A DNA stretch of 64,000 nt. Origin: Eledone cirrhosa. Taxonomy: Eukaryota. This document shows positions 16,660 to 60,938 of this stretch, in pieces; position 1 is the first letter of the stretch, and each line of letters opens with the position of its first letter. The stretch covers positions 25,048,001-25,112,000 of the forward strand of contig OZ024742.1 in assembly GCA_964016885.1 (NCBI GenBank), written 5' to 3'. The position numbers and the translations under genes are program-made. The notes beneath the pieces are model-generated. The model saw only the letters and a list, made by a program, of their open reading frames with translations. It made no database searches and was not told the origin of the DNA.

Positions 16660-16747
16660 GCATATTACAATTGTTTTGATATCAATCAGCTCGGGTTTGA
16701 TCAGGCGAACTGATCCCGACTCCTAATCGACACCTCTTCAGATATGC
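16660..16747 (-). ncRNA. Type I hammerhead ribozyme fold with G12A core change
   Basis: gcatat-CTGAAGA-long stem II-AAAAC-AATT-GTA-atatgc. Confidence 0.7.
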
Positions 16748-17530
16748 GAGTTTACATGGGTGACCCCATCCAAACTGTTGACATATCTATCTATCTATCT
16801 ATATGATAAGTATTTTCGTAGAAAATGTAAAAGAAAGAAGAGTGCTCTATGTATAGTACAGAGCAATTTATTTACATAATAAACAAAGGTTTCAAGAAAC
16901 TAGGTGATTCTTACAGAAACATCTTGCCTGTGCATCAGATAAAATGATTATTTTATCTAATGAACGGTCTAGATGTTTTGGTAATGGAATAATTATATTG
17001 TGTTGTTTATTATGTAATTAAACACACACACATATGTATATATATATATATATATATATATATAAGGAAAAGAAATTTAAAATGCAACTAGAGTCTTTTA
17101 AGAATATTTATTTACTTTATCGGTTTCGCAGTTCTTATGATTATCACAAGTAAAATTGAGATGGAGTGTTTGTGTTTATATTGCGGTGTGTCTCTCACCC
17201 CTACCCCCACCCCCACACACATAGACACACCCCACACTCCCACACACACACATATGTATATAATGAAAGAAAACGATAAAATAAAATAGAGGAATTGCTA
17301 AATATCTGAAAGAAATGTTTCCATGTTGATAGAGAACAAATACTAACTACATATATTACATTTGAACATTAGAGAATACTAGATCAAGGTAATCATTTCC
17401 AAATTATTATTTTAGAATAATTCGTTAAAATTGAGAAAAAAAAAGATAAATCAATAAAATAAAAAAAAAATGATAAATAAATGTTTTAATGTATAAAAAT
17501 GTAAAAAATTACAAGTAAATAGATAAAAGA

Positions 17531-17670
17531 GAATAATAATAATAATAATAATAATAATAGTAATAATAATAATAATAATAATAATAATAATAATAATAAT
17601 AATAATAATAAGAAGAAGAAGAAGAAGAAGAAGAAGAAGAAGAAGAAGAAGAAGAAGAAGAAGAAGAAGA
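17531..17670. repeat. Compound (AAT)n(AAG)n microsatellite
   Basis: Direct inspection. Confidence 0.95.
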
Positions 17671-18569
17671 AAAAATACATGAAAAAAAATCAATATCATT
17701 TTATTGTTAATTTCAATCGTGTGTGCTAGACTTATATAATGATTTCTCAGTGCAATCAACGGTAGCTAGATAACAATTTGGACACAATCAATAATAATCA
17801 GATAATAATTACTGTGTAATCAATGTTATCATTGTTGTTATTGTTGTTTTTCAGGATATTACACTGCCACCACCACTACCACTACTACCACCACTACCAC
17901 TGTCCAACATTGCATTGGTTTCACTTTTCAATCATATTACATGCCTCACTTCAATAATACATTTCTCTTCAGAAACAGAAATCATACACATGCATTATTG
18001 ATGCTGCTACTTTTTTTTTTAACCACATTATTATTTACCAATAAAAGAAAAAATATATACATAACAAAAATATCATCATTATCATCATCATCGTTATCAT
18101 CATCGTCGTTTAACATATGTTTTTGCTGCTAACAAGTGCTGGACAGGTTATCATAGACTAAATCTCTACACAATCAGAGCTTCTGACAAGTGTGGTCTTT
18201 CACCTGCTGAGACCCTGAGGTATATGAAATTTGAGGGTATTCTCTAAAAAAATATAATTATCATTTTTTTAATATAAATGTTTAATATAAAGAATAAATA
18301 TATATATATATATATAAATGAAAATAGAGAAATTAATGCGAGCAAGAAGCCAACAGTATTTCATAATATATAAGTGACTATAATGTCAAAATGGAAAATA
18401 TTTAACGTAAGATATGGGAAAATGATTCGAACTCAATTTTAAAAAAATCAAGACAGAGATTTTATCCATAGATTTTGTGAAATCCAGGGAAAAAAACCAA
18501 TAGAGTCTTAACTCAGAATAAAAAGTTTAAATACTCATCCTTCAATTTGGAAAAACTATATATATATAT

Positions 18570-18938
18570 CAGTGGCAAATGGTAACCTGGAAAGCAGGGC
18601 ATGCAGTCCAATCGCCATGGCAGAGAGTGGGGCTGTGCAGCTTCCCCCACCTCCCAATTCCCTCTAAATGACCCTCCCGGTCAAAGCTGCATGTAGTGTT
18701 ATCTAGTGTGTGTGTTATCTTTTTATGTGTCTACGATTTAGTAAGCAGTAAAAATTCTGCTTGCCCCAAAGCTGTCGTGTGTTTGTGTGTATGTGTGTGT
18801 GTGAGTTATCTTTTTTTGTGTCTATACGTTTTTAGTAAGCAGCCAAAATTCTGCTTGCTTCAACTGACGCAATTGATCAACTCAAGATTCTATAACGCAT
18901 GCACTGCATGCATTGCATGCACAGACCCTTCGGCCCTG
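18570..18938. mobile_element. Possible MITE in (TA)n
   Basis: Imperfect termini atCAGTGGC / GGCCCTGat. Confidence 0.35.
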
Positions 18939-18963
18939 ATATATATATATATGTATATGTATA

Positions 18964-19092
18964 TAAGGTCGAGTGACGCAATTTCGAGTGATTAGCGGCC
19001 TTTTGACTCACCTGATCAATGAAGCAATTGTTAATACTGTAAATAAAACCCATTTTGTACAGCCGATCATGTTATTCTTCACTTTTTCACTA
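18964..19092 (+). repeat. About 130-bp dispersed repeat end, second copy at 41497-41630
   Basis: taaggtcg.gtgacgcaattt.gagtgattagcggcc..ttattcttcact.tttcacta followed by (TA)n in both copies. Confidence 0.8.
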
Positions 19093-19527
19093 TAAATATA
19101 TATATATATATATATATAAATCAATATATATATATATAACTTTTGATGATTTAGTGTTAAAGGATAAAACCTAATTATGAAATAAATATATATTTCTTTT
19201 AAATAAGGTCCCAGAGGGTGTGTGGTCTGAAGCGATAGTTTATTTAGCTTATAGGTATATCCTGCACTGATGGTAAGTCAATTATATCTACCCAACTGGT
19301 ACATTATTTTATCAATCCAGCAAAAATAAAATACAAAGTTGAGCTCAACTGATTTCATCATCTTCATCATCATTTTACGTCTACTTTTCCCTGCTTGCAA
19401 GGGTGGGACGGGACCTATTCAGCACAGCATCTCTCCACTTGTCACAGTCCTTCGTCATCTCCTCCGTGAGTTTCAGAATATAAAAAGTTGTAGCTAAATA
19501 CCCCAAACCATTTTGTCTTAGATGTTA

Positions 19528-58499: not shown

Positions 58500-59600
58500 C
58501 ATACCCTTAAAGAATGCAACCATTGGAGAAATACAAAGTAGCAAATAAAGACGACCTTGAAAAATTGAATACAGATGCCTCTTATATAATGCATGAACTA
58601 AGCATTGAAAATAGGACACAACCCTTCACGCCAAGGAAACCTAAGATTAATATGAAGGATCATAAAAGGAACTTCGAAACTGATTTACCAGTCAGATTAA
58701 TTGCACCATCTAAATCGGAGTTTGGCAGACTTAGCAAAAATATTCTAGACAGAATAATACCACACATTAAGAATTTATCTTATTTAAAATTATGGAAAGG
58801 AACTAGTTAAGTTATCGATTGGTTTAAAGATATTAAATATAACTATAATAATAAGTTTATTCAGTTGGATATTGCTAACTATTACTCATCTATCACTCCT
58901 AATCTACTGAATAAAGCACTAACTTACGCATTTAAACATACAGACCTAATTAGCAATGAAATGCACATTATATTATTCGCACGGAAAACATTACTAGAAT
59001 TTAATAACCAACTCTGGACTAGGGCAGATAGAAATAATAATTTCGATATAACTATGGGATCATCCGATTCCGTTCAGGTAACGGATCTTGTGGGCCTATT
59101 TATAATTAATTCTCTACATAGAAAAATACCTGAGATAACCGGAGGTTTATATCGTGCCGACATGCTTTTATAGAAAATAATAACTGTGAACTAAATAGAA
59201 AAAGAAAACAAATTATACAATTGTTTAATTACCTTAATCTAAAAGTAGAAATAGAGAATAACCATAAAATAGTTAACTTTCTAGATGTAACACTAAATCT
59301 TAACACATGTCTTCATTATCCATTTCACAAACTAAATGAGAACTTAAAATATGTCAATTTTAACTCTAATCACCCCAGATCCGTTAAAAATACAATACTG
59401 AACTCTGTACAAGAACGAATTTCGAGAATTTCAGCTAATAAGAATATATTTGATGAAAAAGCACATTATTACAACGAAGCGTTAGGTAGAGCTGGGTATA
59501 GAAATAAAATTAAATACATCGATAATAATAATAATATAACAACTAACCATAATCGTAACAATTTTAACTATGGTAACAATTTTCACAACTATAATAGAAA
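58500..59600 (+). pseudogene. Penelope-like element reverse transcriptase remnant (possibly Naiad-type); no GIY-YIG domain seen
   Basis: KDHK..PVRLI.P.KSE.G.LSK.ILD, DIANYYSSI, FDITMGS.D...DLVG, GLYRAD (degenerate YxDD), VNFLDVTL, YVNFNSNHP; stops and frameshifts. Confidence 0.85.
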
Positions 59601-59607
59601 ACCTTAC

Positions 59608-60147
59608 ATATATACATACTACTGTACGTCTGTATACATATATGTATGTACGTGTACATACTTATATTTAAGTAACAGCCGTACTAAGAGTGGGAAATGA
59701 AATTTCGTTTCATTATTTCCGTTTATCGTTTTCGGTGCACCCGGCCGATTAACCCACTCGATATGCAAATTGGGCTACTCAGCCGTTAATATGCATAAGG
59801 TAAGTATATACGTTCAACAATCTGGCAGGAAGGTATACGTTGCTGACGATAGCTAATAAGCTTGAAACTAGTACAGCGTTCCTTTGTCAGTGTTGAACAA
59901 ACGAGCAACAATGGTTGCTAGATACTACGGCTTAATACGGGATGCTTGTTTACAAACACACCGAGCATTATAATAAATGTTTGGTGAATCCATACGTACA
60001 TATATATATGTGTGCATGTATGTATATATATATATACATACTACTGTACGTCTGTATCCATATATGTATGTACGTGTATATACTTATATTTAAGTAACAG
60101 CCGTACTAAGAGTGGGAAATGAAATTTCGTTTTATTTTTTCCGTTTA
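59608..60147 (+). repeat. Partial tandem repeat, period 422 bp (pseudo-LTR-like)
   Basis: catactactgtacg..tttccgtttat begins at 59615 and 60037. Confidence 0.9.
59812..59898 (+). ncRNA. Type I hammerhead ribozyme fold with extended stem I
   Basis: acgttg-CTGACGA-t agct aata agct t-GAAAC-TA-GTA-cagcgt; stem I continues aagg/cctt, ctggca/tgtcag, gttcaaca/tgttgaac. Confidence 0.85.
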
Positions 60148-60357
60148 TATATATATATATATGTATATGTATATATATCTATATATATGTATATGTGTAT
60201 ATATATATATATATATATATATATATATATATATATATATATATATATATATATATATATACACACATATACATATATATAGATATATATACATATACAT
60301 ATATATATATATATAAACGGAAAAAATGAAACGAAATTTCATTTCCCACTCTTAGTA
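60104..60357. repeat. 254-bp near-perfect palindrome centred on (TA)n
   Basis: ORFs 60119..60316(+) and 60145..60342(-) translate identically; one mismatch seen. Confidence 0.92.
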
Positions 60358-60396
60358 ACTGTTGAAAATTGCAAACTCGACTGTCACCACATATTA

Positions 60397-60435
60397 TGAA
60401 CCTGAAGATTGCGAAAGCATGAAAGTACTTGTTCA
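60397..60435 (+). ncRNA. Minimal type I hammerhead ribozyme fold
   Basis: tgaac-CTGAAGA-t tgc gaaa gca t-GAAAG-TA-CTT-gttca. Confidence 0.8.
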
Positions 60436-60784
60436 ATTAACACTTAGAATTTAATATTCTATCATACTATTTCATTATAATACCATTATATATTTTAAAG
60501 GATTGTAAATAAAACGAGTAAATCAGACAAAGTTGGAATTCCTCTTATTAATATATATATATATATATATATATATATATATATATATGTAGATAAATCT
60601 ACCAAGAGTTTACGGTAGTGTCCAATCCGTATGAAGAACTCAATGTATTCCGGATATCATGGAAAGAAGAGATGTAATGAAAAATCACTTTCGGTAAAAG
60701 ATAAACGGTATACAGAGTCAAGATAAAATATTAAACAAATAATGAATAAACAATGAAACAGTTCCTTATATTAAACAAAAAAAG

Positions 60785-60938
60785 TTCATTATTTAACGAT
60801 CGTTTCTAGGATATATATGTGTTAGAATTGGCATGCATATTCAATAGATCTATGTACAAAATTATACAAAATTATACAAACTATCAAGATTAAATATACA
60901 TACCAACACATATATACGCCGTCTTCAGAAATAATGAA
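60785..60938 (-). ncRNA. Type I hammerhead ribozyme fold with a ~115-nt stem II domain
   Basis: ttcattattt-CTGAAGA-..tatatatgtgttgg..ctaacacatatata..-GAAAC-GATC-GTT-aaataatgaa. Confidence 0.78.

Follow-up and report, generated by a model that had tools for sequence, protein, structure and literature searches.

The minimal hammerhead ribozymes described for Penelope-like elements (PLEs) by Cervera and de la Pena (2014; PMC4209133) adopt a type I fold with a short palindromic helix III and an extra base after A9, and they form many divergent families, mostly represented by truncated copies and opposite-strand pairs, with a U3-A8 variant among them. Their palindromic helix III favours cleavage as dimers (PMC4209133; PMC6765202). 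Among PLEs, the Hydra clade, which includes Hydra-1_Obim of Octopus bimaculoides, is described as having a C-terminal endonuclease, RW[K/R] and DKT motifs, a CxCX5C linker, a hammerhead at the 3' end and a (TA)n target (Craig, 2021; PMC8557442). The metazoan retrozymes without long terminal repeats (non-LTR retrozymes), in turn, consist of non-coding units in tandem, each carrying one type I hammerhead, with a GC content below 45% (Cervera and de la Pena, 2020, PMC7229834; Li et al., 2026, bioRxiv 10.64898/2026.07.22.740005); they form RNA circles, and PLEs are their proposed mobilisers (PMC7229834). Here, we report that the features of all three systems recur in a 64-kb stretch of the 3.0-Gb, (TA)n-rich genome of Eledone cirrhosa (contig OZ024742.1, G000:C3:25048001-25112000; hereafter the window). 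Our results make it likely that the hammerheads found here are type I motifs at the 3' ends of PLEs, mostly of the Hydra clade, joined by two short non-coding tandem repeats that are probably mobilised by the reverse transcriptase (RT) of such an element. PLE-end hammerheads, Hydra elements in (TA)n and metazoan retrozymes have all been published; the parts themselves are known.

A descriptor scan for CUGAnGA, GAAA and UH in type I order, with at least 4 bp in stem I and at least 2 bp in stem II, identified five intact motifs with a closed stem I in the window, each assigned to its own family: 33976-34022(+) in family B, 41088-41167(-) in C, 59837-59879(+) in D, where the position 59812 noted earlier is the start of an extended helix I, 60397-60435(+) in E and 60785-60938(-) in F. 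The initial annotation had listed six type I folds; these five are intact, but the sixth, at 16660-16747(-) in family A, retains all helices and reads AAAA for GAAA, thus lacking G12. Among the other loci of family A, 8 of 19 pass the scan for an intact motif. A seventh hammerhead, decayed and reading GGA for GAA, lies at 58403-58467(-) and belongs to a Hydra family termed H2. Stem III is a perfect palindrome in four of the five intact motifs, and the five palindromes given in the initial annotation read as written; the motif at 33976 carries ATACTGT at this position, where its family reads ACACTGT in 17 of 19 cases. Local dinucleotide shuffling of the window, repeated 100 times, left 95 versions without a match, four with one and one with two, and no match was palindromic. 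A cmscan of the window against Rfam returned no hammerhead family, just microRNA-like simple-repeat noise, and a scan for a type II-like order whose palindromic stem III is fused, as distinct from the true SGC permutation, had no match in the window or in 800 kb of randomly sampled sequence. This random sample, eighty 10-kb stretches from nine contigs in a length-weighted draw, contained 69 intact motifs in 33 of the 80 stretches, 52 of them with a perfect palindrome. The initial annotation was right in taking the motifs for PLE-type hammerheads with a palindromic stem III. The divergence of the families, noted before from their unrelated helices, is confirmed by the 26 clusters into which the 69 matches fall and by blastn, which found nothing in common between the 3' sequences of the families except one short match between E and A and matches in simple repeats.

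Coding and non-coding families have a single insertion footprint, consisting of 3' ends in (TA)n, arms placed back to back and two fixed 3' ends. A (TA)6 tract (six or more units) lay within 300 nt downstream of the hammerhead in 56 of the 66 scorable random matches, compared with a background of 20% when all stretches are counted and of 33% within the same ones, as predicted for targeting of (TA)n. Upstream, the proportion (22/66) equalled the same-stretch background, and (CA)n and (GA)n showed no enrichment beside these 66 hammerheads. TA tracts are enriched on the 3' side of the ribozymes only, and the description of the motifs as short inserts between such tracts does not hold at 60785, where the hammerhead closes a two-armed insertion exceeding 10 kb. 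Families D, C, F, H2, B, E and G (see below) each end at one of two fixed 3' points that are 52-137 nt apart (137 nt in F, 56 nt in D), and family A has a single main 3' end, which often falls at a (TA)n or (TC)n tract. Same-family pairs were divergent in 18 cases and convergent in one. In family D, inspection by hand showed a long end on one arm and a short end on the other in all nine clean pairs, while three more pairs, one of which looks long/long, have an end that is not clean; an automated classifier found one long and one short end in 11/11 pairs of H2, 3/3 of F, 8/9 of C and 3/4 of G. A hairpin preceding the 3' end, scored in seven families, gave z values from -0.3 to -4.7 for the long ends and from -1.5 to +1.6 for the short ones, which is suggestive of a common hairpin before the long end but does not establish one. 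Since inverted truncated copies with a one-sided tail are known for PLEs (PMC8557442), with a tail of 30-40 bp there and 52-137 nt here, the footprint is a longer form of the published one. Our literature search, which covered part of the supplements, found neither a two-end priming model for PLEs nor a long/short two-armed footprint for retrozymes. The sequence between the C or A copies of the window and the next TA tract (41369-41630(-) and 16805-17036(-), respectively) does not match these families.

Covariation supports the ribozyme fold. In 36 D-like sequences selected solely for their core and its spacing, 12 of 17 pairs vary at both positions, and the covariation score of 0.341, as opposed to 0.126, was reached in none of 500 shuffles, a control that ignores relatedness among the sequences and is to that extent a point against our interpretation. 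Family G provides a further variation of the core: its complete ribozyme (loci L197 and L156) has a U3-A8 core, UUGAAAA, that is invisible to canonical descriptors, and U3-A8 covariation has been described for Schistosoma PLEs (PMC4209133). In the window, this family is represented by a decayed copy at 17065-17177(-) and by a 3' end at 32942-33108(+) that is truncated inside the UUGAAAA core and has its long 3' end at a (TA)24 tract; these account for two of three isolated 3' halves annotated earlier, near 17120 and 32960. The third, near 18350, was rejected as a hammerhead half, with GGAA in four of six copies and a window copy that lacks an upstream core. The surrounding segment, 18300-18556(-), belongs to a different repeat family, which has (TA)n at its end and whose window copy has no detected hammerhead and whose copy at another locus (L257) has CTGATGA about 400 nt upstream.

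It is conceivable that the hammerheads are only passengers or structural signals, conserved in sequence while their cleavage is dispensable for transposition. Both 3' ends lie 51-275 nt beyond the cut site (five families), and inserted copies always cross the cut site intact; moreover, PLE hammerheads are reported to be weakly active in vitro (PMC4209133), and it has been suggested that they may simply parasitise PLEs (PMC8557442). We regard this explanation as unlikely, because 26 unrelated clusters retain the catalytic core and show compensatory stems, and one family carries a U3-A8 core swap, as selection on an active fold predicts. Structure predictions yielded a stem III pairing probability of at most 0.06 in monomers and an intermolecular pairing probability of 0.92 for C, 0.47 for E, 0.31 for F and 0.15 for D. 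Helix III is thus predicted to form between two molecules for C, E and F and weakly for D, but not for B.

Four of the six annotated hammerheads trace to protein-coding PLEs, those at 60785 and 33976 to the Hydra clade, that at 16660 probably also to the Hydra clade and that at 60397 to a Neptune-like element. The first lies in family F, a Hydra element of 6.7 kb that is very young, with copies 99-100% identical; the window contains its 3' arm (60586-64000(-), including its own TA/TG-rich 3' region). This arm belongs to an inverted pair of truncated copies, an insertion that runs more than 7 kb past the window. The family forms 6.7-kb tandem units with an 813-aa open reading frame (ORF) for an RT and a putative endonuclease, full length in two of five loci checked (L101, L104). 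The protein, which is collinear by eye with the motifs printed for Hydra-1_Obim (PMC8557442), contains RWR at 37, DKT at 115, YRDD and a CxCX5C linker, CNCRNKANC, at 673; its structural model has a predicted local distance difference test (pLDDT) score of 85, and its eight best Foldseek matches are TERT; searching solved structures by sequence yielded no more than a weak match to a retron RT. Family H2 carries the same motifs (RWK-type, DKT, CxCX5C linker). Judged from the telomerase-like single-ORF RT, the linker motifs, the terminal hammerhead, (TA)n and the tandem/inverted structure, F and H2 are best classified as Hydra-clade PLEs; they differ from the published members in their 3.8- and 6.7-kb units and long 3' regions (PMC8557442). 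Naiad PLEs, which have an N-terminal endonuclease and lack canonical hammerheads, are a poor fit, as the putative endonuclease is C-terminal here and hammerheads are present. For comparison, the supplement of PMC8557442 gives helix III of Hydra-1_Obim as ACCA-A-TGGT.

The 3' region of family F (L101:4280-8100; window 60586-64000) is a 3.8-kb stretch rich in TA/TG and resembling microsatellites, in which copies are about 97% identical to one another. It contains 11 (TA)6 tracts, so that the family carries its own target, and 12 of the 64 TA tracts of the window sit inside the F copy. Family F can nevertheless be rejected as the seed of the microsatellites of this genome: F-like DNA makes up 0.17% of the random bases and holds 2 of their 1,403 (TA)6 tracts, and only 58 of the 1,403 lie directly 3' of an intact hammerhead. 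A candidate source locus, G000:C1:183733220-183757035, is a two-armed array of several near-identical 6.7-kb F units with at least two intact ORFs.

The remaining coding families are present as 5'-truncated 3' ends. The window copy of family B (33156-34062(+)), with a short 3' end, is the 3' untranslated region of a Hydra-type coding element, and 11 of 15 longer copies (L232-L246) have a putative Hydra-type endonuclease some 1.9 kb upstream. Family A (16610-16804(-)), with 2,517 first-look candidates at 83-92% identity, is probably a Hydra-type coding family as well; an endonuclease of this type lies upstream of it in L284, and the upstream part of this locus matches inverted arms in L275 and L280. 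Family E (60358-60550(+)) has its short 3' end at (TA)19 and is contiguous with the endonuclease end of a PLE upstream in 3 of 15 loci (L247, L248, L256). In L256, a C-terminal GIY-YIG domain (Pfam PF01541, E 3.7e-5) follows a CX4CXXC linker, as in Neptune-clade PLEs with their CX2-5CxxC-type linker and C-terminal GIY-YIG; the assignment of E to Neptune-like elements comes from motifs and Pfam in one broken copy. Among 20 stretches picked deliberately rather than at random, the ATGCGCAT family was joined to Hydra ORFs in 4/4 chosen pairs, and several other families stayed untraced to ORFs.

These results bear on the proposal of the initial annotation that the motifs represent numerous independent retroelement families, for the most part non-coding, which rely on an RT like that at 58500-59600. 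Most copies are indeed short, families D and C are non-coding tandem units, and among the 69 random matches 17 fall into such families and 27 remain untraced. However, 25 of the 69 belong to families traced to Hydra ORFs, and only the motifs at 59837 and 41088 are non-coding among the six of the window, with A, B, E and F departing from non-LTR retrozymes in the ORFs found upstream. The copies are short because they are 5'-truncated at variable points. The RT named is, moreover, a broken, 5'-truncated copy of H2 (58527-59604(+)), an element of about 3.8 kb whose RT fragment has 15,180 first-look candidates. An inverted H2 3' end with its own decayed hammerhead (58272-58524(-)) adjoins it, and D merely interrupts the RT, cutting off its 3' side; at none of 19 other loci is the H2 RT joined upstream of the 422-bp D unit. 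We therefore consider dependence of mostly non-coding families on this RT to be improbable.

The two non-coding families resemble retrozymes. The copy of family D in the window (59605-60148(+)) consists of one 422-bp unit and a 122-bp partial repeat with its long 3' end at (TA)n, and that of family C (40889-41368(-)) derives from a 491-bp tandem unit (periods of 491, 491 and 496) with its long 3' end at (TA)16. Their longest ATG-initiated ORFs are 51 and 50 aa and their GC contents 0.37 and 0.38, respectively, in line with the non-coding, GC-poor tandem units with one type I hammerhead of the published families. Family D also shares the U-U mismatch at the helix II base of axolotl HHR_Amex2 (PMC7229834), and the helix sizes of D and E are near-canonical, unlike those of the minimal hammerheads of PMC4209133. 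By contrast, D and C, known here as genomic sequence, have slightly longer units than the about 170-400 nt of published retrozymes (PMC7229834; bioRxiv 10.64898/2026.07.22.740005) and carry a PLE insertion footprint in common with the co-resident coding families, which we did not find in the retrozyme literature consulted. Further non-coding retrozyme families were seen with a 310-bp unit and ACGCGT (L152, L131, L013) and a unit of about 465 bp and ACTAGT (L075, L079). Contigs from two sequencing runs of other organisms contain D (X5, X6) as well as E and F (X6), as a matter of presence only. An origin of the non-coding units as satellites that derive from pseudo-LTRs and are amplified at the DNA level by local tandem growth (cf. 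bioRxiv 10.64898/2026.07.22.740005), instead of being retrotransposed in trans, would be compatible with the D arrays of up to about six units. Against it, D copies are scattered over many contigs at 97-98% identity, and the non-coding units, like the coding families, stop at (TA)n at one of two fixed 3' points and have divergent arms, which leaves this origin very unlikely.

Genome-wide, the hammerheads form the very large population that the initial annotation anticipated. The random sample yields a density of about 86 per Mb, typical also of the window, and extrapolates to 2.6 x 10^5 motifs (bootstrap 1.8-3.4 x 10^5), U3-A8 and decayed copies excluded, compared with about 2,000-9,000 per genome for the PLE hammerheads of PMC4209133. 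This extrapolation is noisy, because the sample contained 14 matches to the D pattern where 6.6 were expected and none to the E pattern where about 2 were expected. Three whole-genome pattern counts together set a floor of about 1.4 x 10^5: a core-only pattern gave 113,514 matches versus 3,726 for the reversed control, the exact cores of D and close subfamilies gave 24,767, and the E cores gave 8,083 with a control of 0. In the random sample, 28 of 33 core-only matches also passed a test of stems I and II, which the pattern itself leaves unconstrained. Hydra-like coding DNA occurred in 16 of the 80 stretches and made up 2.8% of the bases. Chance folds in AT-rich, microsatellite-rich DNA, which might be invoked given the 1.75 (TA)6 tracts per kb and stem III palindromes such as ATATATAT, are refuted to near certainty by the reversed-pattern control, by the ten shuffles of the same 800 kb (8 Mb), which gave one match altogether, and by the covariation, the latter two being checks that the initial annotation had proposed.

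The motif class is thus real, abundant and of a known kind, and its copy number is unusually high for one genome. A count of 126,247 motifs has been given for axolotl (PMC7229834). The present estimate is about twice that number. The genome is about a tenth of the size of the axolotl genome. In the literature searched, we found no cephalopod hammerhead census, although supplements of published surveys could hold such counts, no report of Hydra elements as a major genome component and no hammerhead density of this level. The earlier expectation that the population is unannotated holds just partly, since an Octopus Hydra family with a hammerhead and a (TA)n preference already appears in the supplement of Craig (2021); the main text of an Octopus vulgaris repeat annotation (PMC13282606) mentions neither ribozymes nor Hydra.

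Taken together, the data are consistent with a mechanism in which transcription of tandem copies yields RNA that is cut to unit lengths by two hammerheads paired through their palindromic stem III. Since both 3' ends lie beyond the cut site and copies cross it intact, the template would be either uncut read-through RNA or a re-ligated circle, with a circle as the simplest template for the 422-bp arrays. The endonuclease of the element would cut (TA)n, and each DNA end may then prime cDNA synthesis at one of two fixed A/U-rich points of the RNA. The two cDNAs, truncated at their 5' ends, would be joined head to head, leaving most genomic copies as ribozyme-bearing stubs of a few hundred bases.

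Several observations weigh against our interpretation. Comparison of D and C with five coding families in their 3' regions revealed no sequence link, and the co-resident Neptune-like elements with the same footprint are candidate mobilisers of D and C beyond Hydra. The automated classifier scored 6 of 20 D pairs as short/short, which we take to be artefacts of the internal TA runs of D, because the list made by hand shows none, and overlapping loci may inflate the pair counts of the other families. The link of family A to an ORF has one locus and two inverted arms as its whole basis. The C-terminus of the F protein reads IVY...YIG with R, H, E and N residues, and neither Pfam nor a fold search named an endonuclease domain, so that the putative Hydra endonuclease is assigned from motifs and the description by Craig (2021). 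As to the ribozymes, the predicted dimer pairing of family B is 0.00, PLE hammerheads are reported to be slow in vitro even as dimers (PMC4209133), and Naiads spread without canonical hammerheads (PMC8557442).

Other repeats are interspersed with these families. A non-LTR element at 9102-12623(-), with a second fragment at 7157-7579(+), has a 1,173-aa stop-free RT ORF with a C-terminal PDLVV...DVACP motif, which we take to be of the restriction-like endonuclease type. Three copies of long interspersed nuclear elements (LINEs), presumably RTE-like, lie at 14387-16186(-), 38106-40964(-) and 55701-57834(+), one with a 952-aa stop-free frame, and a broken LINE, which we assume to be L1/Tx1-like, at 51326-53810(+). 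Tandem repeats occupy 27961-28726 (65 bp), 47363-47869 (32 bp), 5216-5530 (93 bp) and 13428-13831 (203 bp).

Collectively, our findings lead us to a broader proposal, which we advance tentatively and with somewhat more doubt than conviction: this hammerhead population may be among the densest on record and stem from an active radiation of Hydra-clade elements, and its insertions would record a mechanism general to PLEs, by which cDNA synthesis is primed from both ends of a cut (TA)n, at two fixed points that lie 52-137 nt from each other on a single circular RNA generated by the ribozyme, while the same enzyme rolls round retrozyme circles of 300-500 nt. The integration of PLEs, the role of their hammerheads and the enzyme that moves animal retrozymes are open questions in the literature. 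They can be put to the test in this genome, which has an intact, young Hydra element as well as many young retrozymes that share its insertion footprint. If the proposal is true, the intact 813-aa F protein and the 422-nt D circle would constitute a ready in vitro system for the life cycle of PLEs and retrozymes.

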